IMG/VR virus record: IMGVR_UViG_3300027692_000003
From: a virus
Taxonomy: Duplodnaviria > Heunggongvirae > Uroviricota > Caudoviricetes
Reading direction: 5' to 3' (one strand)
Length of the DNA stretch: 64,000 nucleotides
A model generated the notes under the pieces. The model searched no databases. It was not told the DNA's origin and saw nothing but the letters and a program-made list of their open reading frames with translations. The translations under genes and the position numbers were made by a program. This document shows positions 29,951-56,578 of this stretch, one piece after another. Numbering within the stretch: position 1 is the first letter of the stretch; each line of letters opens with the position of its first letter.

Positions 29951-30136
29951 GACCCGCCGGAGGGTGCCGGGTTCCGCGCGGGTAGGCTGCTCGCGCCCCC
30001 GTGCTGGATTGCGTGCGCCTTGCTGACACCTTGGTGCTCCCCGGCACGGGGGTCTTCTCCGCCCATCGGGGTTGCGTTTGCTGGTAGTTCCGGGCATAAT
30101 GGTGGTGTCAGCAAGGCATCACGCAAGGAGCACCCG

Positions 30137-31302: not shown

Positions 31303-32683
31303 CCGGTACGCCGTCGTGATCCCCGAGGAGCCCGCCGGGGCCGTGCGGTCCTGGCGCAAGCTGGTCAGTGCCGTCGACGGCGGCCGCGGCGGCGCCTACG
31401 CGCTCCGGGGCGGCTGGCTGGACCCCGACAAGGCCTACGAGCTCCCCGCCAGCGCCCTCGTGGTTGCCTGCGACACGTTCCCCGAGGTCCGAGAGGTCGT
31501 CCTCTACAAGGCCGCCGGCGGGACACTGGAGACGGTGAAGCAGTGGACGCTGCGGACCCCGCTCGGGAAACGCGTCACCGATTTCACGGCACGCAGGCTC
31601 GCTCCGGGCGCCTCCGGGCACCGGGCGGTCCCGCTGGAGGACCTCGCGAACCGGTACGACGGCCGCTGCCGCACCTGCCGGCAGCCCGTCCCCGCCCTCA
31701 CCGGACGGGCGTGGACCGCGCGGGACGGCAGCCGCACGGTCGCGCACCGGGAAGGGGAATGCCCGCCGCCTCCGCCTCCGCCGCCCCGGGTGGAACCGAA
31801 CCTGTACGCGGACGCGTGCCTGTGGTGCGGCGGCTGGGTCGCCGCGGAGACCGGGGCGGCGATCCTGGGCGAGCAGGCCGAGCCGGGCCGCCGGGGCCTG
31901 TACCGGGCCGTCCACCAGGTGTGCCCGCCCGATCCGCTGCCGGGCCCGGTGAACTCGCGGGAGGCATGGTGCTCGGAATGCTCCGGGATCGTCGCCGGGC
32001 AGGCTGGCTGCTGGGTCCTCCAGCCAGGCGGCGGCAGGCTGCTGCGCCACCACCCGGCCTGCCCCGGCACCGCCCCCGCTGAGCCGCGGTGGATCGTCGG
32101 CGCTGAAGGCCGTACAGGCGACGCGGTGACCGCCCGTGCCGACCTGCGCCGCGGCGGCCCGGCCATCCCCGAGACCGTTCCGGGGTACCGGATCCTGGAC
32201 GATCAGGGCTTGTACATCCAGTTCTACGGGGTCATCACCGCCGTCATACGCGGCAGGTACGGCAAGTGGGAGACCCAGGTCCGTGCCGCCACCCTGGACG
32301 AGGCGGCACCGCTGGTCGCCGCCGAAGCGGAGCAGGCCCTGATTGCCGCCCCGCACGATCCCGGGTTCCGGGGTGCGTGGCATGCGGAGATCATCGGCCC
32401 GCACCGGCCGTGGCTGGCCCGCCTCACCGGCTATGACCCGGACTACGGGCTGCGCCGCGTCTTCCTCCGCCCGAAGGAAGACTGGCTGGACGCGAACCGG
32501 AAAGGGACCCGCGGCGTGCAGTGCTGGTGGACCCTCGAGCTGAACGAGGTCTACGAGGCGTGCTGGCGGCAGACGTGGAACTCCGAACTCCGCGAGTTCC
32601 TCCGGGTCACCCCCGAAGGGGACGTCACCACCATCACCCGGGAGGAGGCCGAAGCATGGCTGGCAATGCCGCACGTACGCTGA
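31292..32683 (+). CDS. Multidomain protein with three CxxC..H..C zinc-ribbon repeats
   Basis: NRYDGRCRTC, NLYADACLWC and NSREAWCSEC repeats; C-terminal RPWLARLTG..P.YG..R.FL...DANRKGTRG domain; overlaps the ibrA-like start. Confidence 0.7.
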   Translation: MTSDRYAVVIPEEPAGAVRSWRKLVSAVDGGRGGAYALRGGWLDPDKAYELPASALVVACDTFPEVREVVLYKAAGGTLETVKQWTLRTPLGKRVTDFTARRLAPGASGHRAVPLEDLANRYDGRCRTCRQPVPALTGRAWTARDGSRTVAHREGECPPPPPPPPRVEPNLYADACLWCGGWVAAETGAAILGEQAEPGRRGLYRAVHQVCPPDPLPGPVNSREAWCSECSGIVAGQAGCWVLQPGGGRLLRHHPACPGTAPAEPRWIVGAEGRTGDAVTARADLRRGGPAIPETVPGYRILDDQGLYIQFYGVITAVIRGRYGKWETQVRAATLDEAAPLVAAEAEQALIAAPHDPGFRGAWHAEIIGPHRPWLARLTGYDPDYGLRRVFLRPKEDWLDANRKGTRGVQCWWTLELNEVYEACWRQTWNSELREFLRVTPEGDVTTITREEAEAWLAMPHVR

Positions 32684-33918
32684 GCCGCACCAAGCGGGGC
32701 CTCGGCATCGACGTCCTCACCGCCGCCCGGCAGCGGATCCGCCGGGTCTTCGACGATTTCCCGGATGTCTATTGCTCTTTCAGCGGAGGAAAGGACAGCG
32801 GCGTCTGCCTGGAACTCGCCGCGGTGGAGGCACGGGCGCGGGGCCGGCGGCTCGGCTGCCTCATCGTGGACCTCGAGGCCCAGTACCAGCACACCATCGA
32901 CTACATCCACCTCATGCTCGAGCGGCACGCCGATGTCCTGGACGTGTACTGGGTGTGCCTGCCGATCTCCCTCCGCAACGCCGTGTCCCAGTTCCAGCCG
33001 AAATGGCAGTGCTGGGACCCGGACGCCCGCGACTGGTGGGTGCGGGAATACCCCGTGCATCCCGGGGTCATCACCGACCCGGGGTTCTTCCCGTTCTTCC
33101 GGCGGGGAATGGAGTTCGAGGAGCTCGTCCCCGAGTTCGGCTGGTGGCTGTCGGAGCAGCACGGCGGGAAGCTGACGGCATGCCTGGTCGGGATCCGGTC
33201 CGATGAGTCACTCAACCGGTACCGGACCATCGCGTCCCGGGTCAAGCGCGTCCACGAGGGACTGCGGTGGACGACCTGGACCGGGCATGCCGCCTACAAC
33301 GCCTACCCGGTCTATGACTGGCGGACCGAGGACATCTGGCGGTACTACGGCAAGACCGGCACCCCCTACAACCAGGTGTATGACCTGATGCACCGTGCCG
33401 GGGTATCCATCCACCAGGCCCGCCTGTGCCAGCCGTACGGCGATGACCAGCGCAAGGGCCTGTGGCTCTACCACACCCTCGAACCCCGCACCTGGTCCAG
33501 GGTCGTCGCCCGGGTCCAGGGCGCCAACTTCGGTGCCCGGTACGCCCGCGAGACCGGGAACATCATGGGCCGCATCCAGATCACGAAACCGGACAGCATC
33601 ACCTGGGAGCAGTACGCCATGGGCCTCCTGGACTCCATGCCGGAGGACACCGCGGAAGCGTTCCGGTGCAAGATCGCCTGGTTCATCCGCTGGTATGAGA
33701 ACAACCGCGGGTACGGCGGCGGCATCATCCCCGACGACGGCCCCCTCGGTAAAGGGAGCCCGTCATGGCGGCGGATCTGCAAGGTCATCCTCAGTTTCGA
33801 TTATTACTGCAAAGCGCTCACCTTCAGTGCGCCCGCGCATCCCGCCGCGTTCGAGGCGTACAAGAAGCGGATGGCGGCCCGGCGCCAGGAGTGGGGTTAC
33901 AGTGACCGGGGCCTGTGA
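32656..33918 (+). CDS. PAPS-reductase-like/DUF3440 protein (IbrA/YbdN family)
   Basis: YCSFSGGKDS PP-loop, VDLEAQY, LVGIRSDESLNRY, YPVYDWRTEDIW, RLCQPYGDDQRKGL, SWRRICK.IL..DY.CK.L.F. Confidence 0.9.
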   Translation: MAGNAARTLSRTKRGLGIDVLTAARQRIRRVFDDFPDVYCSFSGGKDSGVCLELAAVEARARGRRLGCLIVDLEAQYQHTIDYIHLMLERHADVLDVYWVCLPISLRNAVSQFQPKWQCWDPDARDWWVREYPVHPGVITDPGFFPFFRRGMEFEELVPEFGWWLSEQHGGKLTACLVGIRSDESLNRYRTIASRVKRVHEGLRWTTWTGHAAYNAYPVYDWRTEDIWRYYGKTGTPYNQVYDLMHRAGVSIHQARLCQPYGDDQRKGLWLYHTLEPRTWSRVVARVQGANFGARYARETGNIMGRIQITKPDSITWEQYAMGLLDSMPEDTAEAFRCKIAWFIRWYENNRGYGGGIIPDDGPLGKGSPSWRRICKVILSFDYYCKALTFSAPAHPAAFEAYKKRMAARRQEWGYSDRGL

Positions 33919-39023: not shown

Positions 39024-39311
39024 TTACCGCGCCCTGCGGATAACGCGCCGCGCTGCCTGGGCAATAGCGTCAGCGTAGGGCTGCTCCCTCTCCTGCATGA
39101 GCGGGCTCAGCTGATCAAAAGGGACCAGGCAGGGATGCGCGGGGGTGCGGTCCGTGTAGTAAGCGCACCAGGCGTCGTGCACGTCCGCCAGGGTGACGTC
39201 CTCGCCCCGCACCAGGACCAGCAGGACGTAGAGCCTTATGAGCCCGGCCGGGAGTCCCTGCATGACCTCGTAGCTGGTCAGGATCTCGGCTATCTCGTCG
39301 AAGTACATCAT
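39024..39311 (-). CDS. Conserved phage hypothetical protein
   Basis: LYVLLVLVRGEDVTLADVHDAW...HPCLVPFDQLS...Q..E..Y..AI motif; ATGA overlap. Confidence 0.75.
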   Translation of the reverse strand: MMYFDEIAEILTSYEVMQGLPAGLIRLYVLLVLVRGEDVTLADVHDAWCAYYTDRTPAHPCLVPFDQLSPLMQEREQPYADAIAQAARRVIRRAR

Positions 39312-39799
39312 GACCGGGGGCTGCCTCCCGCCGGCTCGTCCCATGCCCGGCACGCCGCGGCAAGCCGGGCGCATCCGGCCGCGTGTCCTTGCCCGGCGTC
39401 TGCGGGGCCGCCCGCATCGGGGCCGCGGTCGGTGACGGTGGCGCCGCACTGCGGGCACGTCCACGGGACAGCGGGGCCGCTGCCGTAGTCGGCGGCGAAA
39501 CAGGCGAACGCTTCTGCTGGCCAGTCTTCCGGGCTGAGCGTCGTGCCGTCAAACAGCACCTCCCCGATCTCGCCCCAGGTCTGGCCGGCCTCCCGCGCAG
39601 CCCGCGCGAACTCGGCTAGGAGGCTGGTGATGGCATGCCGCAGCGGGAGGGCGGCACGGATCCCGTCAAGGGGCGCGGGCCCGGCGACCGTGCCGAATTC
39701 CGGGTGACCGGGGACCGCCTGGCTGGTGACCATCCGTGCGCCGTTCCCCCGGGCCGCGGTCGCGATGACATTGCGGATGAGCTCGCGGTCGGTGCTCAT
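39308..39799 (-). CDS. Hypothetical protein (CPQC motif)
   Basis: ARAAREAGQTWGEIGEVL, WTCPQCGA.VTD.GP...GHAAGC. Confidence 0.7.
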   Translation of the reverse strand: MSTDRELIRNVIATAARGNGARMVTSQAVPGHPEFGTVAGPAPLDGIRAALPLRHAITSLLAEFARAAREAGQTWGEIGEVLFDGTTLSPEDWPAEAFACFAADYGSGPAVPWTCPQCGATVTDRGPDAGGPADAGQGHAAGCARLAAACRAWDEPAGGSPRS

Positions 39800-40866
39800 G
39801 CCTGCCGCCTGTCCCCGATGGAGACGACACGCTGCGCCTGCTGTGCCGCGAGCGCGAGCACCTTCCCGGCGCGCTCGTGGCCGATGCTAGCCCGGCCGCC
39901 CGCCTGCTCGCGGATGACCTTGACGACTCTCGTCGGCGACACGTCGCCCTCGGCGAGCAGCGGGATGATGAGGGCCGCCAGGTCGTCGTCGGAGGCCTTC
40001 GCCGGGACGAGCCGGCGGCCCCTCGTGACGGGGGCTTGCGAGGGGCTCGCGGCGGGGGTTCCGCCGGCAGTGCCAGCGGTGCTCCCGGAGGCCTCACCCG
40101 GAGGGGTCCCGGCTGTGCTGGCGGGGGGGTCCTGCGAGGGGGTCGCGGGAGGGGGCGCGGAGGCCTCGGCGCGGGCCGCGCGGAGGACCTCCGCAGTGCG
40201 CTCCGGGAGGGTCACCGCGGCGGCTATCCACGCTTCCACGGCGGGCTCCCAGACGGTCGCGCCGCCGTACCTCGCGCCACTGCCGATAGCCTCCATGACC
40301 TTGGCCGGGAGGCGCCCGGAGAGCAGCTGGCGGCGGAGCAGGACGGGGGCGCGGAAACGCCAGGAGAGGCCGAGCCCGGAACGCAGCATGTCCCTGGCAT
40401 GGGCCTGCGCGTCGGCGAGGGTGACGGCGGCGGCGCGTTCCTCCGGTGTCACCTTCAGGCGGCGGACGAGGATCTTCGCGAACAGCAGCTGGCCGTAGAA
40501 CGCGGTCACGACGATCACGTGCGCGATGGCGTCCGGGACCGCTCCGCGGGCGGCGTAGATGTTGAGCCAGTAACTCCCCGCCGCGCTCGCTGTCAGGAGG
40601 GCGCCGAGCATCCACGTGACAGCGCGCGGCGGCGTGTCCTTCAGGTCGAGCAGCAGCCAGCCCGCGTACAGGCCGGTGAACATGCCCTCCGCCGATGCCG
40701 GGACGATCCACGCCCAGTCCCCCATCCACTGGTGAACCAGGTGGGTGACGGTGAAGTAGATCTCCACGAACGCGAAGAAGCCGACCGCTGCGCACAGGAG
40801 CCCGTAGACGGCGGCGAGGCCGAGTTCCCAGGCGGTCCACCCGCCGCCAGCCCGGTGGCCCTTCAC
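39796..40866 (-). CDS. DUF2637/SpdA-like membrane spread protein
   Basis: Four N-terminal TM segments (WAWIVPASAEG, SYWLNIYAA), low-complexity Pro/Ala linker, C-terminal HTH-like SPTRVVKVIR...SIGHERA. Confidence 0.7.
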   Translation of the reverse strand: MKGHRAGGGWTAWELGLAAVYGLLCAAVGFFAFVEIYFTVTHLVHQWMGDWAWIVPASAEGMFTGLYAGWLLLDLKDTPPRAVTWMLGALLTASAAGSYWLNIYAARGAVPDAIAHVIVVTAFYGQLLFAKILVRRLKVTPEERAAAVTLADAQAHARDMLRSGLGLSWRFRAPVLLRRQLLSGRLPAKVMEAIGSGARYGGATVWEPAVEAWIAAAVTLPERTAEVLRAARAEASAPPPATPSQDPPASTAGTPPGEASGSTAGTAGGTPAASPSQAPVTRGRRLVPAKASDDDLAALIIPLLAEGDVSPTRVVKVIREQAGGRASIGHERAGKVLALAAQQAQRVVSIGDRRQA

Positions 40867-41138
40867 TGCCCGTCACCGTCTGGCCCGAACGTGCAGTCGA
40901 GCCAGCGGCCGGACCGGTGAATCAGCGGTGCCGCGGCGATCAGCATGATTACCGTCACCGGGATGACGGTGCTGATGGCCAGCCCGGTCATCCACGGGTT
41001 GCGCCACGACGGCATTCCGGGCACTCCCGGCAGGAATGCCCACGCGGCGCAGGCCGCGATCACGAGCAGGGTGCGCGTGCCGCGCCGTGACTGGCACGGC
41101 GGTGGCGGCGCAGCCTCGGGAACGTCCATGCGGGCCAT
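40863..41138 (-). CDS. Small membrane protein
   Basis: Two hydrophobic segments; GTGA overlap. Confidence 0.55.
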   Translation of the reverse strand: MARMDVPEAAPPPPCQSRRGTRTLLVIAACAAWAFLPGVPGMPSWRNPWMTGLAISTVIPVTVIMLIAAAPLIHRSGRWLDCTFGPDGDGQ

Positions 41139-41327
41139 CCTTGCCTCCGTCGCTGATCGCTGTCAGGCGGTTTCTGGTTACCGGCACTTGCATCCGGGGC
41201 AGGTGCACCGGCAGCTGGTGGGGCACAGGCACCAGATACGGCGGCAGCACGTGCCGCCGGACATATTTCAGTCATTCCGGGCCGGTGCGTCCGGGACGAA
41301 CCCTCCCCTGCCGGTCACGGCGGGTGA

Positions 41328-41454
41328 TTGTCCACTTGTCCACGGCGTTGTCCGCGGGAATTGTCCGCTTGTCCAGATGGATGATCCTCGCGGGCCTGCG
41401 CGCGCCTGCGCGCGTAGGGGCGCGGGCCGGTCCTCCAGTCGTCCGCTCGTCCGC
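41328..41454. repeat. Cluster of 8-bp direct repeats, candidate clt/TRS for TraB
   Basis: TTGTCCAC 41328 and 41336; TTGTCCGC 41348 and 41361; TTGTCCAG 41369; TCGTCCGC 41439 and 41447. Immediately downstream of traB. Confidence 0.7.
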
Positions 41455-41468
41455 GCCCTGGACGACAC

Positions 41469-43577
41469 TCACGCTGCGTTCACTTTCCGGGCGTCCCTGA
41501 ACAGGGCATCCCGTTCCCTCGTGATGGCTTCCATCGCCTCGGTCACGGACGTCCCGGGGAGCGGGGCGTAACGGCCGCGGGACAGCTGGGTGACGGCGCC
41601 GTGCTCGATCAGGGCGGCGAGCATGGGGTGGATCCAGGACGTTGACATGCCGGACTCGGCTTTCAGCTGGGCGGGGGAGATGCCGCCGGCCGCACCGGCG
41701 AGGGCGGTGGCGAACATGTCCCGCTGCCGTTCCAGGACCGGCCGCAGGTCCGCCGGCGGGGGAGTCCAGCCTTCGGGGACCTCGCCGTACATCGCGTCCA
41801 GGTCCGCTTCGATCCTGTCCGCGACAGCACGGGCCCCGGACCCGGCGGGGGAGGGCGCCGGCGATGACTCCGATGCGGCTGCCGCAGCCGCCGCGGTAAC
41901 GCCGAACTGCCGGACCGCCGCCTGGTACTGGGGGGAGAACTCCCTGAACCTGGGGTCCAGGCGCAGCCAGCGTGTGTCCCACCATTCCTGCCAGGTGACG
42001 CCGAGCGGCGACATCTCAGCGCCGCAGAACAGCCGCACCGGATCACGCGGGCCGATCAGGGCGGCGTTCTGCTCGCAGATCCGCTTCAGCAGTTCGTGGG
42101 GCATGTGCGGGGCGCGGACCTGCTCGGCGGTTGTCTCCGGGCCGTCTTTCATCAGGAACGTGCCGAGTTCCTCGAGCCGGGACGCGTCATACCGTGACCA
42201 GTCATCGAACGCGAACTGTCCATGCGAGGCTGACTCGACCCGGTACACGAACCGCAGGCGCAGGTTCCCGCGGGTCTGCTCGGTGCGGACTGATTCCTCG
42301 AGCGACCCGTACTGGGTGTCGATGTCTGTATAGATCTCGACGGCGCTGCCCTGGCTCGCCAGGGTGGCCAGGTAGCGGGCGCATTCGGCGTCCCCGTTGG
42401 TGACCGAGGTGAGGCCGTGGGTCTCATCGATCTCCACGTGCCATGCCGGCAGCCCGGTGGTTGCCTTGAGCTGGTCATCGCCGTCGTAGGCTCCCGCGCC
42501 GCGGGCGTCGATCTCCCGGGTGGTCATCAGCAGGAACATCCGGGCCTCGTCCACGGTGGTGATGACATGCTCCGCGGACCCTGCCTCGAGCACGGGCCGT
42601 GCGGACCGGCCGCCTTTCAGGGCGATGAGGACCTGCCGGTCATCGGGGCAGCCGGACAGGGACGCGATGCGGGCCAGGAGATGATTGGTCTTCCCGCTGC
42701 GGGTCGTGCCGATGATGAAGCTGTTGCACCGCAGGCTGCCCATCCGCCATAGACCGGTCTCGGTGACGCCGAGGGGGGCCAGGTCGTGGACTGAGCGCGG
42801 GGCGATGTCCGGATCCCACTGGACGACGGCGGCGAGGGGGTTCTCCCGCTTGAAGCGCAGCCTGAAGTGGCTCGGCTTGCCCTTGACGGTCTCGCAGCTG
42901 ACCCGGCCGACGTCCACCATGCCGTCCAGGGCCGACTCGATCAGCGGGACGACCTGCTGGACGTGGGAGAGGGCGTGCCGGCCGGGCAGGCCTGCGACCT
43001 CCAGGGCCACGGTGACACCGGAGGCCTTGGCGTCCACGACCCTGGACCCGCCAAGGTTCCAGGACCAGCAGTGGGACTGCCACCAGGCGTCCCACTTGCC
43101 GATGAGGGCCTCGCGCCTGCGGCGGCCGCGGGGCCGCTTGTGACGCCACCACAGCACGCCCCACGCGGTGCTGAGGGGGGCCAGGGCAGAGCCGAGGATG
43201 ATGCCGGGCAATCCGGCGGCAGGGCCGGTGAACGCCGCGGCAGTTACCCAGCTGGCGGCGGCGACGGCGGACAAGCGGGCATAGAGCAGCTCGGGGGGCC
43301 GGTCCCATCTGTGCGGAGCGAAATACCACAGGCCTGCGGCGGCGACAGCGGAGGCGGTCGCGATATAGGGGGCGGCATGCAGCGCGAAGGATGTTTCCCC
43401 GGCCAGCCACAGGACCGGCGGGACCCCGATGGGGACGGAGACGTGCCGGTTGCGGGCCAGGGAGCGGCCGGCGGCGATGATGGCACTGCCGGACGGCCGG
43501 AGGCCTGCCTCCCATGGCGGACTGCCTGCCGGTGCCGGCGGGACGTAAGGACGCGGCACCAGGTCCCCTCCTGGCAT
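41469..43577 (-). CDS. traB: TraB-like FtsK/SpoIIIE DNA translocase
   Basis: N-terminal TM segments, IIGTTRSGKTN Walker A, HVEIDE Walker B, C-terminal winged helix (ISPAQLKAESGMSTSWIHPMLAALIEHGAVTQLSRGRY). Confidence 0.8.
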   Translation of the reverse strand: MPGGDLVPRPYVPPAPAGSPPWEAGLRPSGSAIIAAGRSLARNRHVSVPIGVPPVLWLAGETSFALHAAPYIATASAVAAAGLWYFAPHRWDRPPELLYARLSAVAAASWVTAAAFTGPAAGLPGIILGSALAPLSTAWGVLWWRHKRPRGRRRREALIGKWDAWWQSHCWSWNLGGSRVVDAKASGVTVALEVAGLPGRHALSHVQQVVPLIESALDGMVDVGRVSCETVKGKPSHFRLRFKRENPLAAVVQWDPDIAPRSVHDLAPLGVTETGLWRMGSLRCNSFIIGTTRSGKTNHLLARIASLSGCPDDRQVLIALKGGRSARPVLEAGSAEHVITTVDEARMFLLMTTREIDARGAGAYDGDDQLKATTGLPAWHVEIDETHGLTSVTNGDAECARYLATLASQGSAVEIYTDIDTQYGSLEESVRTEQTRGNLRLRFVYRVESASHGQFAFDDWSRYDASRLEELGTFLMKDGPETTAEQVRAPHMPHELLKRICEQNAALIGPRDPVRLFCGAEMSPLGVTWQEWWDTRWLRLDPRFREFSPQYQAAVRQFGVTAAAAAAASESSPAPSPAGSGARAVADRIEADLDAMYGEVPEGWTPPPADLRPVLERQRDMFATALAGAAGGISPAQLKAESGMSTSWIHPMLAALIEHGAVTQLSRGRYAPLPGTSVTEAMEAITRERDALFRDARKVNAA

Positions 43578-44419
43578 CAGGGGGCACCCGTCTCGGTCAG
43601 CTCACGGTAATGCGGTGCCTGTCTCGGGGACCTGGCCAGCTCCCCGAGGCTCATGCCCAGCAGGGTGCCGAGTGCGGTGTCGGCCTCGCCCAGGACCATG
43701 GCGGCAGCCTGGAAATGCTGCCCGGACCGGGCGACCGGCTCGGTGATCTCCGGGCCGTAGTGCCCCTGGTCGGTCATGCCGCGGGAGATCGCGACCGCGG
43801 TCGTGTTCGCGCGCAGCCCGACCTCGGACAGGGCCCGCATGACCCGGTGCTTGTCGTGGGCGTTCCCGGCGGATGCTTCGGCGCGGAGGCGCTGCAGTCC
43901 TTCTATCACCATCTCGAGCGAACCGGATCCGGCCATGCTGGGGGATGTTCCTTCCGTGACTGGAGGGTGACCGGCTGATACCGGGCCTGGCGGGGAGCTG
44001 GCCGGGACGCCGGGTGCAGGGCCCTGCTGCGGCGGCGGTCCGAGGACGTCGGCAACATCGTCCCCGCCGAGGCGCAGTATCCGGGACGGGGCGTGCGTGC
44101 CTCGGCCGCCGCGGGCAGATGGCGGTCCGGCGGCCGGTGCTGCGGCGGGACCCCCGGCGGACGCCGGGCCGTGCCGGCGTTCGTGGCGGCGCTGCTCGAG
44201 CCAGTCCGCGGCCTGTGCCTTCGCCCATGCCCTGCTGATCTCGGCGGCTGCCGCTGCCCTCATGTTCCGCGGCGACATCAGGCGGGCACCGGCGGCGCCG
44301 CGGCTGGCTACGCGGGGATTCCTGGAGTTCGCTGCGGCGCGGGACACCGTGCGGGAGAGCACGAGGAACGCCCCGCCGATGACGAGCAGGGCGAGGAGGA
44401 CCTGCCCGGTGGCGTGCAC
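43577..44419 (-). CDS. TraA-like/plasmid transfer accessory protein
   Basis: N-terminal TM, Pro-rich linker, helical C-terminal domain; directly upstream of traB as in actinomycete plasmids. Confidence 0.55.
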   Translation of the reverse strand: MHATGQVLLALLVIGGAFLVLSRTVSRAAANSRNPRVASRGAAGARLMSPRNMRAAAAAEISRAWAKAQAADWLEQRRHERRHGPASAGGPAAAPAAGPPSARGGRGTHAPSRILRLGGDDVADVLGPPPQQGPAPGVPASSPPGPVSAGHPPVTEGTSPSMAGSGSLEMVIEGLQRLRAEASAGNAHDKHRVMRALSEVGLRANTTAVAISRGMTDQGHYGPEITEPVARSGQHFQAAAMVLGEADTALGTLLGMSLGELARSPRQAPHYRELTETGAP

Positions 44420-44422
44420 GGG

Positions 44423-44884
44423 TCAGCCTCCCAGCAGGCGCGCGAGGGAGGCTACGGCCTGCTGGGCGGGGACGGCTGTCAGCTGGTAGGCGCTGGCGGC
44501 GATCCCGCCCCCGGCCAGGCACGCCAGGAACGGGGTCCCGGCCGCTGCGTAGGCGATGCCAGGGTCGGGTTCCCAGATGAGGGCTACGGTGATGGCGGCG
44601 AGGAGGAACAGGACCGCGATCGTGACCGCGGCCCACCCCAGGCCCGTAGAGACCCCGCCGAGCCACCTGGTGGCGTCCCGCTCGATCCCGGTGATGAACT
44701 CACCTGCCGGGGTCACTACCAGGGCGCAGCCGGCGCAGTACATGAGGGCGATGATGAGCCGCCCTGTCCACGGGTGGGTGGCGGAGGGGAACCGGTGCCG
44801 GTGCGTCATCGTCAGCACGCAGGCGCCGATGGTGATGACCGCGGCACCGGAGCCGAGCCAGCCGCCTGCACCGTGGAGGTTCAC
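44423..44884 (-). CDS. Multi-pass membrane protein (pilin/Spd-like)
   Basis: GTG 44884 overlaps the WhiB stop; about 4 hydrophobic segments. Confidence 0.65.
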   Translation of the reverse strand: MNLHGAGGWLGSGAAVITIGACVLTMTHRHRFPSATHPWTGRLIIALMYCAGCALVVTPAGEFITGIERDATRWLGGVSTGLGWAAVTIAVLFLLAAITVALIWEPDPGIAYAAAGTPFLACLAGGGIAASAYQLTAVPAQQAVASLARLLGG

Positions 44885-45219
44885 GCGGCCTCCGACTGCT
44901 GCGGGCTGCCCTGGGGCAGCGCGGCCTGGTGTCGCATGCGGCGCCGCTGGCGTGCGGTCGTCCCGCCGAGGATCCCGTGGCCGTCGCCGATGGCGAGCGC
45001 CCATTCCAGGCACTGCGCCCGGACTTCGCAGCCCTGGCAGATCCGCTTCGCGTGGCGGCTGGTGCAGCCTTTCTCCGGGTGCCACAGGTCGGGGTCGGCC
45101 TCTGCGCACCGGGCGCCGTCCTGCCAGGACAGGTCACCCGTGCCCCGCTCCGGGTACAGGGCGGACCGCAGGCCGCGCAGGGCCGGTTCCGGATGCGCCG
45201 CGCCCGGCGGGGTGCTCAT
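44881..45219 (-). CDS. whiB: WhiB-family Fe-S transcription factor
   Basis: WQDGARCAEADPDLWHP...AKRICQGCEVRAQCLEWAL...GILGGTTARQRRR (GxWGG variant). Confidence 0.92.
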   Translation of the reverse strand: MSTPPGAAHPEPALRGLRSALYPERGTGDLSWQDGARCAEADPDLWHPEKGCTSRHAKRICQGCEVRAQCLEWALAIGDGHGILGGTTARQRRRMRHQAALPQGSPQQSEAA

Positions 45220-45365
45220 GCGGGGATCCGGCCGGTGACCGCGGTGTGCCGGCGGTGCCGGCGCAGGAAGTGAAGGGCGCGGGCCCGGAGGCGGCGGGAT
45301 GGCGGGCGCAGGTGCCTGGGGGTAGTGATGCGGTAAGCGGCGCTCGGGGGGGTTTCGGGGTTCAT
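45216..45365 (-). CDS. Small Arg-rich protein, first gene of the tra operon (49 aa)
   Basis: Manual translation MNPETPPSAAYRITTPRHLRPPSRRLRARALHFLRRHRRHTAVTGRIPA; ATGA overlap with whiB. Confidence 0.45.
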   Translation of the reverse strand: MNPETPPSAAYRITTPRHLRPPSRRLRARALHFLRRHRRHTAVTGRIPA

Positions 45366-45399
45366 CGGGTTCCGTTCGGCGCGAGGGATTCACGATGCC

Positions 45400-45428
45400 A
45401 GTTCACGGTTAACGGCTAACCGTGAACT
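45400..45428. promoter_or_regulatory. 12-bp perfect inverted repeat between the divergent tra operon and GntR (Kor-type operator candidate)
   Basis: agttcacggtta-acggc-taaccgtgaact. Confidence 0.75.
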
Positions 45429-45552
45429 ACGATACACCATGGACTCACGCGTAGCCGTTGTCAACTTGCAGCCCGGTTCTGCGGGTGCGGGAGTGACCGG
45501 GCTCTACGATTGGCGCAGGACCGGGACCAGGATCGGGAGGAGACGCCGCCAC

Positions 45553-46089
45553 ATGGACCTGACGCCGCCTGTGGCGCGCTATGAGCAGGTCGCGCGGCAC
45601 CTGAAGGCGCAGATCCTGTCCGGGGCCTACCAGGCGGGCGACACGCTGCCCGGCGCTCCCGCCCTGGCCGGCATGCTGGGCACCTCCCAGTCGGTGGTGC
45701 AGAAGGCATACGAGATGCTCGACGCCGCCGGGCTGGTACGCAGCGAGGTCGGCCGCGGCACCGTGGTCGTGGCCCGCCGCCGCTACCAGGTCCGGGTCGA
45801 GGTGCCGCGGCGGGGGGCACCCCGGGACGCCGCCGCCGAGCCTGGCGCCCTGCGTGCCGCACTGGAGGACGCCGCACGGAATGAAGCCGCGATCACCGAG
45901 ATCGGATTCGCCGGCGCCGGGCCCTACGGCGCCTCAGTGCTGATGACGGTGGAAGCGGCAGATCCCCGGCGTGCCGTCGACGCGGGATATCCCGTCGTGC
46001 TGGCAGCCGGTGTACAGGCGGGATGGAGCTGGGATGGCTGGGGCCTGGACGCTGCATCTGTCAGCGCGCGGCCCGGGCAGGATCCGTGA
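45553..46089 (+). CDS. GntR-family regulator (KorA/TraR-like)
   Basis: RYEQVARHLKAQILSGAYQAGDTLP...LAGMLGTSQSVVQKAYEMLDAAGLVRSEVGRGTVV. Confidence 0.9.
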   Translation: MDLTPPVARYEQVARHLKAQILSGAYQAGDTLPGAPALAGMLGTSQSVVQKAYEMLDAAGLVRSEVGRGTVVVARRRYQVRVEVPRRGAPRDAAAEPGALRAALEDAARNEAAITEIGFAGAGPYGASVLMTVEAADPRRAVDAGYPVVLAAGVQAGWSWDGWGLDAASVSARPGQDP

Positions 46090-46890
46090 CGGGCAGGCTC
46101 GCGGGCTCCTGGCCTGCCTGGCGGCAGTTAACTCCGGACCCCCGACGGGGATCTCGTAGACCAGGGCGTACCGCTCGACGGGGAGCACGATATCGGCGGT
46201 CTCCACTGCCATCTGCTCTGTCCGGTAGGTGCGGGCGATGGTGAGCACAGCCGATCCTGCCCGGATCCGGAGCCGTTCCGCTTCGGCGGCCAGGGCGGCG
46301 CGGGCGGAGACGACTTCCTCAGCGCGGATGACCCGCTGCCCGATGACGGCCATCCGGTCCACGACCCCGGCGCCGGCGTGGGGTCCTTCCTCGGGGAACA
46401 TGATGGCGGTGCCGCTGGTGAGCGTCGCGGGTTCCCACGAGGTGGACAGCATGACCGGCTCCCCGTCCCGGAGGAACGTGTACGCGGTGCGCATGGCCAG
46501 CTGGCCGGGTCCGGCACCGAGGCGGCCGGTGATCGCCGGGGTCATGGGGGCACGGTCGGTGGAGGCTTCCCAGGTGCCGGCGGCGCCGGACTGCTCAGCG
46601 TCGGCACGGAACGGTGACCCGCCCGGGCGGGTGGTGTACCAGGCGCGCGTGAGGCGCTGCCGTTCGGGGCGCTGCCGGACGTAGGTTCCTGATCCTGGCC
46701 TGCTCTCGGCGAATCCCTCGGCGGTCAGCAGGCGGACGGCCTCGACGGCTACCCGGTCCGATACGCCGTACTGGCGGGCGAGCTGGTGGCGGCTGGGGAT
46801 GCGGGCACCGGCGGTGAGGTTCCCGTCAACGATGTCGCGGCGCAGTTCGTCGGCGATGCGCCGGTAAGTGGATTCCGCCATGGATGACAT
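45934..46890 (-). CDS. GntR/HutC regulator with UTRA domain (KorSA-like)
   Basis: YRRIADELRRDI..G.L..G.RIPS...LA..YGVS...EAV..L..EG....RPGSGTYV plus UTRA ending YEIPV (~46144). The frame runs on ~70 codons into the convergent GntR gene. Confidence 0.88.
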   Translation of the reverse strand: MSSMAESTYRRIADELRRDIVDGNLTAGARIPSRHQLARQYGVSDRVAVEAVRLLTAEGFAESRPGSGTYVRQRPERQRLTRAWYTTRPGGSPFRADAEQSGAAGTWEASTDRAPMTPAITGRLGAGPGQLAMRTAYTFLRDGEPVMLSTSWEPATLTSGTAIMFPEEGPHAGAGVVDRMAVIGQRVIRAEEVVSARAALAAEAERLRIRAGSAVLTIARTYRTEQMAVETADIVLPVERYALVYEIPVGGPELTAARQARSPRACPSRILPGPRADRCSVQAPAIPAPSRLYTGCQHDGISRVDGTPGICRFHRHQH

Positions 46891-46901
46891 CTTGACGAAG
46901 G

Positions 46902-46936
46902 TGAGTACTCAGGTGCAAGCTGAGTACTCAGCTTGC
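46902..46936. promoter_or_regulatory. Perfect 22-bp palindrome plus adjacent core repeat (GntR operator candidate)
   Basis: gcaagctgagtactcagcttgc at 46915-46936; second tgagtactca at 46902-46911. Confidence 0.8.
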
Positions 46937-46963
46937 TTTCATGTGTCGCGTTAAGGAGGGGCC

Positions 46964-47113
46964 GTGGACCTGTCGGCCTCGGGGGCGCCGGTGGAGGAGA
47001 TCGCGCGGCTGGCTGGGCACTCGAGCTCACGTACGACGGAGGTTATCTACCGGAAGGAGCTCCGTCCGGTCCTGGTCAAGGGGGCCGAGGTCATGGACCA
47101 GATCTTCGGATGA
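46964..47113 (+). pseudogene. C-terminal 49-aa fragment of a tyrosine integrase
   Basis: Manual translation VDLSASGAPVEEIARLAGHSSSRTTEVIYRKELRPVLVKGAEVMDQIFG retains the LxGH...Y catalytic end; aaggagg precedes the GTG. Confidence 0.75.
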
Positions 47114-47414: not shown

Positions 47415-48890
47415 TCAGTCTGTCGTAGTGTCCATCGCTCCGAGAGATGATGCAATTGCAGCGAACTGGTCCAGAGCCGCTTGCAGGTCCTCGACGATCT
47501 CGGCGGCAATCAGCTCTGGAGCTGGCAGGTTACCGGTATCCTCCAGCGATTCGTCGCGGAGCCAGAAGATGTCCAGGGACGCCTTATCTCTCGCGGCCAG
47601 CTCGTCATAGGAGAACGCCCTGAACCGCTCCGTCTCCGTGCGCTCGTGGCGGTCCGCCGGGTTGTAGCAGGCCACGAAGTCATCAAGGTCCGTCCGCACG
47701 AGAGCCCGGGTCTTCAGCGTGAAGTTCTGGTTGGTGCGGAAGTCGTAGATCCACAGCTTCTGCGTCCACGGGTTCTCCGACGGCGGCTTGCGGTCGAAGA
47801 GCAGCACGTTCGCCTTCACGCCGCCCGCGTAGAAGATCCCGGTCGGCAGCCGCAGGAGGGTGTGCACGTCGCACTGCTCCAGCAGCTGTCTCCGTACCGT
47901 CTCGCCCGCGCCGCCCTCGAACAGGACGTTGTCGGGTACGACAATGGCGGCGCGACCGTTGATGGTGAGCAATGACCGGACGTGCTGGAGGAAGTTGAGC
48001 TGCTTGTTGGAAGTAGTCGCCCAGAAGTCCTCGCGGAGGTAGCTCATCTCCTCCCGTTCGGTCTCGCCCTGGGCGTTGACCACCTTGTAGGAGGACTTCC
48101 TGCCGAACGGCGGATTGGTCAGTACCATGTCGAAGTGGTCCGACGGAGTGGACCTGAGCGAGTCATCCACGGTGATCAGGCTCGGACTTTCCGGTGCACT
48201 GATCCCGTGAAGCAGGAGGTTCATGGCGCACAGCCGAGCGGTTGCATCGACGATCTCCCAGCCTCGCAGCGCCACGTCCCGGAGGAACCTCTTCTCGTCC
48301 GGGTCAAGGCTGCCTGACTTCATCTGCTCGTAGGCGGCCAAGAGGAAGCCCCCAGTGCCAGCCGCCGGGTCGCATACCCGCATGGATGCCGTTGGCCGCA
48401 TGACATCCACGATGGCCTTGATCAGCGGGCGCGGGGTGAAGTACTGGCCTGCGCCTGACTTGACGTCCTCGGCGTTTTTGGCGAGCAGCCCCTCGTAGGC
48501 ATCGCCTTTGACATCCGCGTCGAGTGTCATCCACTGCTCGCGGTCGATCAGGTCGGAGACGAGCCGCTTCAGCTTCGCCGGGTCTTGGATTTTGTTCTGC
48601 GCCTTGCGAAAGATGACACCCAGGGTGCCGGGCCATTTGGCGAGTTCAGCCAGGACGTGCCGGTAGTGAACCTCAAGGTCGTCACCGTCCAGACGCACCA
48701 ACGATAGCCAGTCGAGGCCCCTCGGAACGATCGCAGGTCTGCTGAAAGGTGGGTGCGCCTGCTCATCGGCCATCTTTAGGAAGAGCAAAAAGGTTAGTTG
48801 TTCGATGTAGTCCTGGTATGACAGCCCATCGTCCCGTAGGACACTACAGTAGTTCCAGAGCTTCTGCACGATGGTGGCACTGTCGCTCAT
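47415..48890 (-). CDS. hsdM: Type I R-M methyltransferase subunit
   Basis: IVQKLWNYC.VLRDDG..Y.DY.EQLT.LLFLK, GAGQYFTPRPLI, DPAAGTGGFL, TNPPFG, AAIVVPDNVLFEGG. Confidence 0.97.
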   Translation of the reverse strand: MSDSATIVQKLWNYCSVLRDDGLSYQDYIEQLTFLLFLKMADEQAHPPFSRPAIVPRGLDWLSLVRLDGDDLEVHYRHVLAELAKWPGTLGVIFRKAQNKIQDPAKLKRLVSDLIDREQWMTLDADVKGDAYEGLLAKNAEDVKSGAGQYFTPRPLIKAIVDVMRPTASMRVCDPAAGTGGFLLAAYEQMKSGSLDPDEKRFLRDVALRGWEIVDATARLCAMNLLLHGISAPESPSLITVDDSLRSTPSDHFDMVLTNPPFGRKSSYKVVNAQGETEREEMSYLREDFWATTSNKQLNFLQHVRSLLTINGRAAIVVPDNVLFEGGAGETVRRQLLEQCDVHTLLRLPTGIFYAGGVKANVLLFDRKPPSENPWTQKLWIYDFRTNQNFTLKTRALVRTDLDDFVACYNPADRHERTETERFRAFSYDELAARDKASLDIFWLRDESLEDTGNLPAPELIAAEIVEDLQAALDQFAAIASSLGAMDTTTD

Positions 48891-50308
48891 GACGTGACCT
48901 TCTCTTGGGACGCGAGACTGGCGCGGCGCCGTCTCGGCTTCTGGCCATCAGATGCCGTCCGTTTTGCACTAATTCGTTCGAGAAGAACGGATGCTGGTTC
49001 GTCCATCGGATCCTGCGAAACGAGTTGGCCAGAGAATGCTGCAGCGAGAACAGCAAATCGGAGTCGTTGTTCCCTGACCTTGGCGGCCTGCAGGTCGGCC
49101 TCTAGTCTTTCGAGTGATGACAGGACTCGCTTGACCTCATTAACGATCCGGATGATTTCTGTGAACGGCGGGATGCCTACCACGGTAGCGTCGATTGACG
49201 GTGCGTTTAGGTTTAGCCGCCCGATGCCGGCGCTCTTCCCGATGAGCTGCCTCTGGATGTGCGGAGCCTGAAAGAGGAAGAAGAGATACTCTGAGAAGAC
49301 AATTGGCAGTCCGAACCGATAGAGAATCAAATAAGCCCCTGGAATCGCTGGGCGATCCTCGGCGATGAACGCGACGGTGCCGATGCTCCCCGTGCGAGTT
49401 ACGAGAATATCCCCAGGCATGACGTGGTATTTTTGAAAGTCGGATTTGCTCAACGCTAGTTTCGGTGCTTGGCCAACTCGTATTCGTCCGTAGGGTGTTA
49501 TGTCTGTCGTACGTAGTACCGGTACACCTGATGCGACATAGTCGCTGCTAGTAAATCGCGGCCCATACAGAGACCAATTCTTCAGTTCGCCGATAGTCGT
49601 ACGCACCCATCCGGGTGGATGGCAAGTCTCGCTACCTTCGAAGTTTTTATTATAAGTCTTCATCCAGACAGATGCGGGCTCATCGTTTAGATCTTGGGGA
49701 ATAAGCTGGCCCGTTACTGCAGCCTGAAGAACCGCCGCGCGCATTCGCTGAAGATTCTGCTGCACCCGGCCCAACGCTGCGGCTCCGGCGTTGATACGGG
49801 AGAACTGTTCCTCGATGGCAGCGACAATTCGCTCCTGCTCAAGCCGCGGAGGAAGCGGTATGCGGATACGCCGCAGTCCCGAGAGTGGAACAGTCATTTG
49901 GGCTGTCCCAGTCGCATATTTAGTCGCTTGATCGAAAATAGCTCGGCTACTCATAAGTAGCGCTATGAAGGAGGGGTAAATTTCGCGCGAGGGTCGCAGA
50001 ATGCCGATATGGCGTTGAACGCAGAACGGCATGTCGTCTCTTACCAGTGCGGAAATGCCATACGACCCAACTAGGGAGTAAAGCACATCGCCCTTCTGGG
50101 GGCGACGGACTGGATCGAGTGACTCAAAATATTCCGGTGGCACATGCCTGCAGCCCGTGAAGTCAAGCTTCTGAGTTCGGATATTGCCGATCACTAGGAA
50201 CGGTACCCCCGCCGGAACTTGAGGTGGGGCTTGATGATCACCGTCGCTGATTGAGGTGCAAACCTGAGATAGTTCTGCCCAAGCCCACCCCGTTGGTAGT
50301 TCGTTCAC
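48887..50308 (-). CDS. hsdS: Type I R-M specificity subunit
   Basis: ELPTGWAWAEL, two TRD regions, IPLPPRLEQERIV..IE..FS, L.AA..GQLV.QDP.DEPAS.LLERI; visibly lower GC. Confidence 0.95.
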   Translation of the reverse strand: MNELPTGWAWAELSQVCTSISDGDHQAPPQVPAGVPFLVIGNIRTQKLDFTGCRHVPPEYFESLDPVRRPQKGDVLYSLVGSYGISALVRDDMPFCVQRHIGILRPSREIYPSFIALLMSSRAIFDQATKYATGTAQMTVPLSGLRRIRIPLPPRLEQERIVAAIEEQFSRINAGAAALGRVQQNLQRMRAAVLQAAVTGQLIPQDLNDEPASVWMKTYNKNFEGSETCHPPGWVRTTIGELKNWSLYGPRFTSSDYVASGVPVLRTTDITPYGRIRVGQAPKLALSKSDFQKYHVMPGDILVTRTGSIGTVAFIAEDRPAIPGAYLILYRFGLPIVFSEYLFFLFQAPHIQRQLIGKSAGIGRLNLNAPSIDATVVGIPPFTEIIRIVNEVKRVLSSLERLEADLQAAKVREQRLRFAVLAAAFSGQLVSQDPMDEPASVLLERISAKRTASDGQKPRRRRASLASQEKVTS

Positions 50309-51318
50309 GCTGCCAAAGCCTCTGTCAACTCGTCAAGGAGCGGGGTGAGTCTGTCCCCGAAGACTTGTGCCGCCTTGCCGATGCCCCCATGCTCCACAAA
50401 GGGCGTGTACTCGAATGACTCTGGGGATATCCCGAGCTCTCCTGTGATGTTCTCTTTCATCCAGGTCAGCCACTGCAGCTGCTCCACCGTGAATGAGACC
50501 CGCTTCTGCTGCTGTGCGCTCAGCCATGCTGCAAACCGTTCCTCGACCTGATCGCGGAACGGGATTAGTTCCTCGTCCAGATGCAGGGTGTACCGTACCA
50601 GCGACACGATGTCAGTGAGCATCCTGTCACCAGAGCCGCGTACTTTCGACTGGTCGAGCAGCTCGTATGCGCGCCAGAGCACGTCCGGGGTCCACTGGCG
50701 CGGTGGGCGTTCGATGGCCCTGGCCAGCTCCTTGATCTCGGTGAAGGTTAGCCGTTCCTTATGCGGGCGGCTGTAGAGCACCTGCAGGGCTCTGATGTCG
50801 TCCTTGTGCTCCTCGATGTACTCCCTGAACGAGGAGATCATGGCGGAGGCCTTCCCGCGGGCCTCTGCGGAATGCCCGGCAAAGAGCAGCTTGTCCCAGC
50901 CCTCATCTATCGTCTGCACGTACGATTTGCGGACGTCAAGGATCGCGTTGCGTAGTCCGGGGTTCGTGGCCAGCGGTTCCAGGGCCTGGGTGAGCATGGC
51001 AGTCGCCATCGCGGCGACGGCGACGGGGTCGTCGGTGGACTGGCCTGCCGCTTCGGTAGCGGCGATTTGCTGGTCGGGATCGAGCGCATCGACCAGGTGG
51101 TGGGCGATCGTGCCCAGGTCGGTGCCTTCGGCCAGGCCGGTGAGCACGTCCCGGTCATCCTTAGTCAGATGCTTGTCGAGGCGGGCGAGGCGCCCGGCGA
51201 TTGAGGATGCGACCTGCGGGTCTCTGCTGCCGAGAGCGACCAGCTTGAACAGCTCCTTCAGGCTCTGGGCTGGCTTGCGTTCCAGAGGTTGTACGGTCTC
51301 GGCGAGCGGGGTGTCCAT
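50305..51318 (-). pseudogene. hsdR: C-terminal fragment of type I restriction subunit (no nuclease or helicase domains)
   Basis: PLERKP..SLKEL, DIRALQVLYSRP, LTDIVSLVRY...L.PF.DQVEERFAAWL, FT.EQ..WL, EHGGIGKA..VFG.RL..L.DEL.E.LA. Homology stops near 51333. Confidence 0.85.
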
Positions 51319-51696
51319 GACGCCGACACATCCGTCACCTTCCCGGGCATCGCGGCTATTGTCCCATCCGTACGGCGGTGGGTGCGCGGCATACTCGCCG
51401 ATTCCCCCCGCACCGACGACATGGAGCTCATCGCCTCCGAACTCGCAACCAACGCGATCAGGCACACCCCGTCCGGGACCCCGGGCGGCTCGTTCACGGT
51501 CACGGTACGGACCGGACCCGCGTGGGCCAGGCTCGAAGTCGCCGATACCGGGACCGGGGTGTGGTCCGCCCCGGAGGGCCAGGACCACGACGCCGAGTAC
51601 GGGCGCGGCCTGGAGATCGTCGCGATCGTGGCCGACAAGCTCGGCCACGACATCGGGCCGGCATGCCAGGTCATGTGGGCAGAGGTCCTCTGGTAA
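51289..51696 (+). CDS. HATPase_c anti-sigma-like ATP-binding protein (AbaA-like); 5' end uncertain
   Basis: TFPG....V..VRRWV, ELIASELATNAIRH, RLEVAD.G, EYGRGL.IV...AD..G; N-terminus abuts the hsdR fragment head-to-head. Confidence 0.8.
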   Translation: MYGLGERGVHDADTSVTFPGIAAIVPSVRRWVRGILADSPRTDDMELIASELATNAIRHTPSGTPGGSFTVTVRTGPAWARLEVADTGTGVWSAPEGQDHDAEYGRGLEIVAIVADKLGHDIGPACQVMWAEVLW

Positions 51697-51833
51697 GCCG
51701 CAGCACCGCACACCGGAGGGTTTTACCGCCGCTTACGGGCGCCTTACCCTATAGTGTGCGGACGGCCACAGACCGGTTATCACCTACGAGACAGTCGGCC
51801 AGGACCTCGCAGCCGGCGACTACAGTGAACCGC

Positions 51834-55426: not shown

Positions 55427-55840
55427 ATGGATGCGGACCCAGTACCGCATGTCACGAAGTCCCGCCGCGTGGCCACGCACTGGCCCCGCGCCGTCGGGTG
55501 GGCCACCCTGGCAGCACTGTGGCCCGCCATACTCACGATCAGCAGCAGGCTGCCCGCCAGGGATGCCTTCACCGTGGACAACCTGGACGAGATGGGCCGC
55601 ACGGCTACGGTGATCCTCGTCTTCTTCCTGCTCGTCGTCCCGGTCGCCGCCCGGGCATTCGAGGCGCTCATCGTGCAGGTGTGCGAGGAGGCGAGGGAGA
55701 TATCGGATGCTTCCGCGGCGCGCATCGCCGCGGCGGTCGCCGACGAGGTCCGGGGCCGGGAGACCAGGAGGCCGGCCGGGGACGGCCGCTGGCTCCGGGT
55801 CGCGCAGAAGGACCAGGGGGGACAGCCCCCGGAGGCTTAG
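55427..55840 (+). CDS. Two-TM membrane protein
   Basis: WATLAALWPAILTIS and VILVFFLLVVPVAA; converges on the repressor stop. Confidence 0.6.
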   Translation: MDADPVPHVTKSRRVATHWPRAVGWATLAALWPAILTISSRLPARDAFTVDNLDEMGRTATVILVFFLLVVPVAARAFEALIVQVCEEAREISDASAARIAAAVADEVRGRETRRPAGDGRWLRVAQKDQGGQPPEA

Positions 55841-56391: not shown

Positions 56392-56578
56392 GTACACCCT
56401 CGCTGGTAGACGCCTTGCTGGCGGGAAAAATGTTAACAGAAACCGTCGCAAGCCAGGGACGGGGCCCGTGAACGGGGGGTGCTGGGTTTACGGCATTAGA
56501 ACCCTAATCTTCATGCCACGGAAAATAAAGTGCCAAAACACTTGCCCCGCCGCCCGGCCGGCGACTAAATTCCCCCAC

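Follow-up and report, generated by a model that had tools for sequence, protein, structure and literature searches.

IMGVR_UViG_3300027692_000003 is a 64,000-nucleotide stretch of tailed-virus DNA (Caudoviricetes), called the window below. On its minus strand, the window encodes a 702-amino-acid (aa) ATPase (41469..43577) followed by a clt-like intergenic cis element (41139..41468), and sequence comparisons and structural models make it very probable that the two are a native phage pump for double-stranded DNA (dsDNA) of the TraB type and its cognate site. From comparison with related loci, the region appears to be a native, conserved module of an uncultivated tailed actinomycete phage lineage and not an inserted element. 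The whole proposal, that this native pump module spreads the phage genome horizontally as naked dsDNA besides virions, is the explanation that we favor, with more reserve. A preliminary description of the same DNA had reported a Streptomyces-type TraB conjugation module between the phage head genes and the immunity switch. Our gene map, made by calling genes on GC content at third codon positions (GC3) and by Pfam, NCBIfam, and PHROG scans, agrees with that placement.

The ATPase combines an N-terminal transmembrane (TM) region (residues ~44-147), an FtsK-type motor (~170-560), and a winged helix (612-672). Walker A (G290-K296) and Walker B (D384-E385) motifs are present, and no variation at G290, G295, K296, D384, or E385 occurs among 40 homologues with 47-63% identity. 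In an AlphaFold2 (AF2) model computed from the 40-homologue alignment (predicted local distance difference test score [pLDDT], 84), four TM helices at the N terminus are followed by a central alpha/beta domain and, at the C terminus, a winged helix. The hydrophobic helices of the model (44-65, 69-90, 94-117, and 122-147) would form the membrane anchor, and the four predicted TM helices are conserved in the homologues. A Foldseek search of PDB returned TcpA, the conjugation coupling protein of pCW3, and the dsDNA-bound FtsK motor (E values of 1e-17 to 1e-14). Among 550k reviewed (Swiss-Prot) AlphaFold models, the top match was pIJ101 Tra (residues 29-676 against 2-616; E 3e-22), in an alignment that takes in both the TM and the winged-helix ends; FtsK proteins ranked next, with alignments that span the motor up to the gamma domain.

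Profile comparisons gave a consistent picture. The family profile aligned with pIJ101 Tra in hhalign (94.6%, E 7e-8), and the PHROG FtsK/SpoIIIE-like family matched the ATPase at 3.5e-11. Pfam recognized only HTH_IclR (8.5e-6, residues 625-665), and phmmer found no match among PDB sequences. A profile search of 1.84 billion proteins collected 1200 relatives, among them 600-700-aa proteins aligned over the TM and motor regions (E 1e-30 to 1e-47); for 10 of 10 sampled relatives of this size, the best family was NCBIfam plasmid_TraB (1e-31 to 1e-59). Because the fold and profile comparisons converge on pIJ101 Tra, TcpA, FtsK, and this halo of plasmid_TraB proteins, the 702-aa protein is best placed, as far as sequences and models indicate, in a far-diverged branch of the TraB superfamily that lies outside the curated equivalog. 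The earlier label traB thus stands by architecture, fold, and profile homology and fails by curated models. Some homologues of the pump (P0006, P0083, and P0120; loci L009 and L013) reach ~1050-1070 aa and contain an intein of the LAGLIDADG type (PF14528).

The cis element begins immediately behind the pump gene. Octamer repeats had been noted here before, and they are indeed present as part of a larger tripartite site, composed of a left arm (41439-41465), a core (41376-41428), and a right arm of five GGACAA octamers (41328-41376). Six copies of the octamer G[CT]GGAC[AG]A, all on the minus strand, are clustered in 127 bp (41328-41454), with a seventh, variant copy at 41369, and the cluster begins 15 bp past the pump stop codon. 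There is no excess of the octamer over the 64 kb as a whole (14 observed versus 14.7 expected in shuffles), and the Poisson probability of such a cluster is ~6e-13 per 127-bp interval. Read from the stop codon, the site consists of 1 to 3 reverse units, a GC-rich core of ~45 bp, and 3 to 7 forward units. Short direct and inverted repeats thus lie at the 3′ end of the tra-like gene, in an arrangement that recurs in 50 of the 58 related loci that hold this end of the gene.

The consensus of the conserved core is roughly CCCC-TACGCGCGCAGGCG-yGCGCGCG-GCGCGAGGA, in which G-Y-AGGCG is invariant, and in each of these 50 loci the nucleotide profile of the core matched once, on the same strand, 28-64 bp past the stop codon. 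In the window, the match at 41376-41428 is the only one in 64 kb (E 2.6e-11). The opposed orientation of the arms was examined with a repeat word chosen from the right arm alone, to avoid bias. Copies of that word in the left arm were reverse rather than forward by 42:10 (27 loci versus 3; p = 8e-6). The right arm of the window is followed by an AATCAC-N6-GTGA motif (~41314-41329), which was present in only 11 of 43 distinct loci and is not a core feature. A search of Rfam with 39.0-47.5 kb gave no match. RNAalifold on 43 cores produced only a 4-bp hairpin (-2.9 kcal/mol), and because there was no covarying fold, a reading of the core as an RNA or a terminator was rejected. The core is conserved as DNA.

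The sequence of the repeat unit differs among loci. Units include GGACAA (window), GGACGA, CGAACA, GGAGGAT, GGACAGT, CCGGAA, GGACACC, and GTGGAAA, and the unit tracks the start of the winged-helix recognition helix. RGRTW is paired with CGAACA in six loci; one of them, L007, shares this motif and unit with a group whose motors are only ~60-65% identical to its own. RSR[ST]W is paired with GACAGT, and MS[TS]SWIHP with GGAC[GA]A. The motors of L026 and L028 are 91% identical, yet the former has RSRTW and GACAGT while the latter has RGRTW and GCGAAC, and the word of L026 is the same as that of L006 (RSRSW). By these sequence comparisons, the unit follows the helix motif and not the general relatedness of the loci. 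According to papers that cite the original work (PMC3583192, PMC4447253), TraB reads 8-bp clt repeats via helix alpha-3 of its winged helix. The winged helix of the pump is predicted to read the phage repeats, which would match the published mode of TraB. Further, the coevolution of pump and site on the phage points to the phage's own DNA as the substrate.

The pump gene and its site lie within a leftward operon (45365 to 39024, minus strand) whose open reading frames (ORFs) are supported by GC3. This operon and the other sequence features given in the preliminary description are all present where it had placed them. Junctions between ORFs are 4-nt or 1-nt overlaps or a 3-nt gap, consistent with translational coupling; the sole exception is the 330-bp gap 3′ of the ATPase gene. 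A 49-aa ORF (45365-45216) comes first. It is followed by a WhiB-like regulator (45219-44881, ORF open to 45393; Pfam Whib, 1e-17; PHROG WhiB, 1.4e-20) and a 153-aa multipass membrane protein with four TM segments by hydropathy (44884-44423), in agreement with the earlier labels whiB and membrane protein. Next is a 280-aa protein (44419-43577) with an N-terminal TM helix, a Pro/Ala-rich linker, and a C-terminal three-helix bundle, whose stop codon overlaps the ATPase start. Past the cis element, the first gene encodes a 91-aa protein with two TM segments (41138-40863) and overlaps by 4 nt the gene for a 356-aa SpdB/DUF2637-like membrane protein (40866-39796) with TM segments and a C-terminal soluble domain. 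A 163-aa gene coupled to the latter (39799-39308) and a DUF7701 gene (39024-39314) complete the operon, all on the minus strand.

Two of these proteins had been compared with plasmid transfer proteins. The 280-aa protein had been called TraA-like, for which no family, plasmid, or structural match was found. It had no match among plasmids, and the AF2 model of its C-terminal domain, a three-helix bundle (pLDDT 90), had no PDB structural match at an E value of 0.001 or better. The bundle (43580-43969) is strongly conserved and includes a YGPEITEP motif; its C-terminal tail, likewise conserved, stops exactly at the start codon of the pump. A predicted complex of the pump with this domain scored 0.30 against a mark of 0.32. 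WXG100/EsxA hairpins are substrates of FtsK-like EccC ATPases; likeness of the bundle to such hairpins appeared in weak structural rows far from significance and is not evidence. The 356-aa protein had been called Spd-like. Language-model features agree with this name, with a similarity of 0.92 (205 of 256 features shared) to DUF2637, "conjugal transfer protein," and SpdB_N/HTH_SpdB_C clusters; alignment does not, since the protein had no Pfam match, no BLASTP match to pIJ101 SpdB, and no tblastn match in plasmids.

A GntR-family regulator is encoded divergently from the operon (45553-46089, plus strand, ORF open from 45439; Pfam GntR, 2e-16) and consists of a winged helix and a C-terminal domain of no known kind. 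Between this gene and the operon start lies the operator-like inverted repeat that had been described as perfect and proved to be so: two 12-nt arms (45400-45411 and 45417-45428), 100% complementary across a 5-nt spacer, which by sequence and position are a candidate operator. A HutC-type GntR+UTRA regulator (45934-46890, minus strand; Pfam GntR, 5e-17; UTRA, 1.4e-11) converges on the first GntR ORF with a 156-nt overlap (45934-46089). Its final ~70 residues do not look protein-like, and the ORF may in fact end earlier. Just 5′ of the HutC-type gene, in the interval 46898-46936, a perfect 13-nt palindrome (GCAAGCTGAGTAC / GTACTCAGCTTGC; 46915-46936) is a second candidate operator.

To relate the window to other phages, 70 related loci were gathered by scanning IMG/VR and JGI metagenomes and by looking up sequence contexts. 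The order WhiB, 153-aa TM protein, 280-aa protein, ATPase is kept in 18, 32, 46, and 70 loci, respectively; the 280-aa homologues lie directly upstream of the ATPase in their 46 loci, and the 153-aa homologues are in place in their 32. Homologues of the 356-aa protein follow the cis element in L002, L015/16, and L050, and GntR homologues are divergent from the module in L004 and L008/L039. Where flanking sequence was sufficient to judge synteny, the operon led, without a change of strand, to terminase and portal genes located 3.4-5 kb downstream (L002, L004, L008/L039, L011, and an ENA contig). This is the outcome of the comparison with related phage contigs that the preliminary description had proposed.

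The corresponding genes of the window are close relatives of those in the related contigs. Its large terminase subunit (TerL) is 74-76% identical to those of L002 and L011 and 67% identical to that of L008, its portal and TerS-like genes are 66% identical to those of L008, and a 399-aa gene (21367-22566) is common to the window and its relatives at the corresponding place. Terminase, portal, and a weak capsid match share the backbone with the module, so the carrier is a tailed phage. Nine IMG/VR contigs with the module are classed as viral, and tyrosine integrases were found in three of five searched. G003 (CheckV, 100%) has portal and terminase matches; G004 (CheckV, 100%) had no match with the three families searched. 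Contigs of the lineage range from about 60 kb to 131-165 kb. Inteins and NUDIX fusions occur in portal genes of related contigs (L002 and the ENA contig).

These features together suggest a working model. The encoded set would comprise an FtsK/TraB dsDNA translocase of hexameric type anchored in the membrane, two conserved membrane proteins as its partners just upstream of it, and an SpdB/DUF2637-like membrane protein downstream, under the control of a WhiB-like regulator and a GntR-type repressor. Once GntR repression was lifted, the pump would insert into the hyphal membrane or septum, its C-terminal winged helix would dock on the phage-specific 6- to 8-bp repeats, and a ring would assemble on the phage dsDNA at the tripartite site. 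ATP hydrolysis would then drive the genome through the pore into a neighboring compartment or a contacting hypha. We infer DNA binding, pumping, and the direction and purpose of transfer from the architecture, the fold, the remote TraB homology, the site conservation, the covariation of word and helix, and the linkage to phage genes, and these grounds lend good support to a mechanism in which phage dsDNA is pumped, as directed by its sequence, through a pore in a membrane or septum.

The preliminary description had raised the alternative of a decayed actinomycete integrative and conjugative element (AICE) inserted in or between prophages, and we extend it to a conjugative plasmid. GntR, TraB-like, and membrane-protein genes are AICE-like in kind, and an integrase remnant at 46964 had been cited in its support. 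However, in independent contigs the module keeps synteny with terminase and portal genes, to whose sequences the TerL, TerS-like, and portal genes of the window are 66-76% identical, and the pump family had no plasmid match. An AICE would have its own integrase, an att pair, and a rep gene beside tra. Around the module, no att-like direct repeats of at least 16 nt were found at 34-56.5 kb (there were imperfect chance matches only), no tRNA was found, and no module protein belonged to a rep-like family in Pfam or NCBIfam. The GC content of the module (71-75%) is like that of the head genes, and the right module edge is crossed unbroken by the window's own 16-kb metagenome contig. The remnant itself is a 49-aa C-terminal tip of a tyrosine recombinase (46964-47113, plus strand; Pfam Phage_integrase, E 0.005) whose weak match is confined to the final 30 positions of the profile (139-167 of 172) and which abuts a type I restriction-modification (RM) island of 55-63% GC (47415-51711, minus strand; hsdM, hsdS, and hsdR). 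The tip more plausibly belongs to this island than to the pump module. The insertion alternative is therefore largely refuted and highly improbable, and the description's other reading, of one element, is supported by the recurrence of the block in dozens of contigs and by its continuation into terminase and portal genes where enough flanking sequence was present. The window contains neither an intact integrase nor an att site, and the "excised prophage circle" of that reading is thus not demonstrated by it.

In the RM island, hsdM and hsdS look intact and hsdR is cut down to its EcoEI_R_C C-terminal domain. Possibly, a mobile island inserted into the regulatory region of the phage and now survives as a remnant for methylation only. 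A small MerR/BldC-like gene in the early operon of the window (57229-57435) has homologues with 46-60% identity (L003, 5263-5430; L005, 7394-7525), which open the pump-containing operon in several relatives. Because of this arrangement, the sequence suggests that the module of the window was parted from the switch by the GntR/RM insertions.

Several observations weigh against the proposed transfer of phage DNA by a TraB-type pump. Pfam PF01580 FtsK_SpoIIIE misses the pump even at E values up to 5, as does NCBIfam, including NF041214 plasmid_TraB, at E values up to 0.1. The pump had no tblastn match (E 1e-5) in 50,697 INPHARED phage genomes and no BLAST-level match in 72,556 PLSDB plasmids. The partner proteins have no detectable homology to plasmid Spd or TraA proteins, and the core has no counterpart among described clt loci. 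In relatives, the module lies within an operon that runs into late genes, which suggests that it is expressed during lytic growth; transfer of a genome that kills its host would be biology unlike plasmid conjugation. That the host is mycelial is deduced only from the WhiB, BldC-like, and DUF397/DUF5753 genes and the 70% GC content. Finally, an FtsK-type pump with a cognate site fits segregation equally well.

Segregation is accordingly the main rival to horizontal spread, which is the purpose we consider somewhat the better bet. Pump and site would serve a vertical purpose, moving phage genomes across closing cross-walls or sporulation septa, or retaining them there, in the manner of FtsK, SpoIIIE, or SffA; each compartment or spore would thereby receive a phage genome that replicates or persists as a plasmid, with no transfer between mycelia. 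The FtsK motor fold and the gamma-like C-terminal winged helix are consistent with this, opposed arms around a core recall polar KOPS-type loading sites and centromeres around a host-factor site, and the module has kept a WhiB-like developmental regulator. A scan of 185,579 species genomes detected no member of the family, which would fit a nonintegrated lifestyle, although this is weak evidence, as the scan rests on two peptide patterns. On the other hand, the nearest full-length relatives by fold and profile are conjugative Tra/TraB proteins and not chromosomal FtsK, an SpdB/DUF2637-like protein follows the site, and several relatives carry integrases, which would make partitioning needless for them; no ParAB is present in the window to compare with. 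We regard segregation into compartments or spores as unlikely, though deserving serious consideration.

Two further purposes are less probable still. The ATPase and repeats could serve phage replication or genome processing, as an iteron origin or a concatemer-handling site, with no membrane crossing; iteron-like repeats with a conserved center do adjoin the gene of their probable binding protein, and FtsK-like genes annotated in several Streptomyces phages have been given a suggested role in replication and none in transfer (PMC11536984; bioRxiv 10.1101/2024.02.16.580700). This is improbable in light of the four conserved N-terminal TM helices and three more membrane proteins in the module. 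FtsK-type motors track duplex DNA and are not known to act as initiators, the extreme GC richness of the core is unlike an AT-rich unwinding element, and a separate early operon of the window encodes a helicase and a Gp3-like protein. Alternatively, the pump might act in exclusion or on the host, expelling or blocking rival phage or plasmid DNA or pulling in its own genome after injection. In PHROGs, the FtsK/SpoIIIE-like families that match are listed under "moron, auxiliary metabolic gene and host takeover," and the module is early in the operon in L003 and L005. Such a role, which we judge slightly less probable than one in replication, leaves the conserved tripartite site unexplained, and the cognate site is on the phage itself, coevolving with the recognition helix.

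The closest known parallel to horizontal spread by a phage pump is pZL12, or phage ZL12 (GQ919031), which papers (PMC3583192 and PMC4487206) that cite Zhong et al. (J Bacteriol 2010) describe as a Streptomyces plasmid-phage. By its GenBank annotation, pZL12 is a tailed-phage genome with a 725-aa FtsK/SpoIIIE-like tra gene, pZL12.71c. A divergent GntR gene and genes for membrane proteins precede it, as they do the pump gene in the window, and it lies a few kilobases upstream of head genes. Transfer of pZL12 reportedly needs the main tra gene plus two genes adjacent to it (as cited in PMC3583192), and in the window two conserved genes likewise precede the pump. The family profile aligned with pZL12.71c in hhalign (94.7%, E 6e-8), but the homology is remote and confined to the motor domain (28% over 273 columns). 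pZL12 also has ParAB and a plasmid life, whereas the window shows no ParAB and its relatives carry integrases; the 200 bp after pZL12.71c have no obvious repeat array on reading; and the lineage described here is uncultivated, with contigs that reach well above 100 kb. Another pZL12 gene, pZL12.20c, is unrelated to the pump.

The TraB/Tra/TraA-clt systems for dsDNA conjugation in Streptomyces plasmids and AICEs (pSVH1, pIJ101, pJV1, and pWTY27) share the three-part build of the pump. On pIJ101, a divergent GntR "kor" gene, a transfer operon, and downstream spd-type membrane genes form an arrangement that is mirrored in the window. Known clt loci, located at the 3′ end of tra or just past it, are variable clusters of 5- to 9-bp direct repeats plus inverted repeats that differ between elements (PMC3583192). 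The phage module differs in that its partner proteins are unrelated in sequence to SpdA, SpdB, and TraA, in that the carrier is a virion-forming phage, and in its GC-rich core between opposed arms, which we did not find described for clt. With FtsK and SpoIIIE and their orienting sequences (FtsK-orienting polar sequences [KOPS] and SpoIIIE recognition sequences [SRS]), the pump shares a motor fold on dsDNA (6t8b and 2ius), a C-terminal winged helix at the place of gamma, and oriented words. The words here are gathered in one ~130-bp site by the gene, however, and not scattered with a strand bias (GGACAA occurs 8 times on the plus and 15 times on the minus strand of the window, 5 of the latter in the site), and the N-terminal TM domain of the pump aligns with Tra and not with FtsK. 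Thoma et al. (2015; PMC4447253) raised the possibility that SpdB2 homologues on actinophages might spread phage DNA; for cultured actinophages, the reports of SpdB2- and FtsK-like genes are annotations without a cis site.

The remainder of the window is made up of phage backbone and cargo. Its DNA is ~70% GC, of actinomycete type. Head genes occupy 1.7-19.3 kb on the minus strand and include a weak SU10-type major capsid protein (MCP) match and, at 15017-19288, the portal, TerL, and TerS-like genes (portal, 15017-16663, Pfam Phage_portal, 7e-23; TerL, 17022-18830, Terminase_6N). TerL shares 34-35% identity with annotated terminases from cultured phages. In the window, the module and the terminase are separated by some 16 kb of cargo (22.6-39.3 kb) that the relatives lack. 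A cargo block lies on the plus strand (23.4-34.9 kb), and the genes of the cargo encode, among others, a LysM+SLT_3 lysozyme-like protein (23365-24147), a DUF5710 protein (30020-30892), and a PAPS-reductase/DUF3440 protein (32521-33918). An XRE/DUF5753 and cI/cro-like switch starts at ~55.8 kb and is followed by the rightward early operon. Three tandem 21-bp repeats (89-100% identical) at 55887-55963, inside or at the edge of a leftward cI-like ORF (55837-56451), with a related copy at 56154-56172, could be the operator repeats of the immunity switch.

Cross-walled mycelial hosts limit the reach of a phage burst. If the proposal of horizontal spread is correct, a phage-encoded pump would let the genome spread within and between mycelia without an extracellular stage. 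A more far-reaching version, which we advance tentatively, is that a widespread lineage of tailed soil actinophages routinely uses this second, virion-independent route of infection; the arms of the site would set specificity and direction, the core would be a new shared loading or host-factor element, and pump and site would diversify like incompatibility groups. The idea of conjugative spread by phages is not new, given the transferring plasmid-phage pZL12 (2010) and the SpdB2 homologues in actinophages (2015). What is added here is the breadth of the lineage, a conserved site, and pump-site covariation: the tripartite site is widely conserved and new, and the covariation is clear. The 43 distinct pump-site pairs constitute a natural specificity code for winged-helix recognition by FtsK/TraB motors. 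Horizontal spread, if true, would blur the boundary between phage, plasmid, and AICE and would affect views of host range, defense systems, and gene flow among soil actinomycetes.

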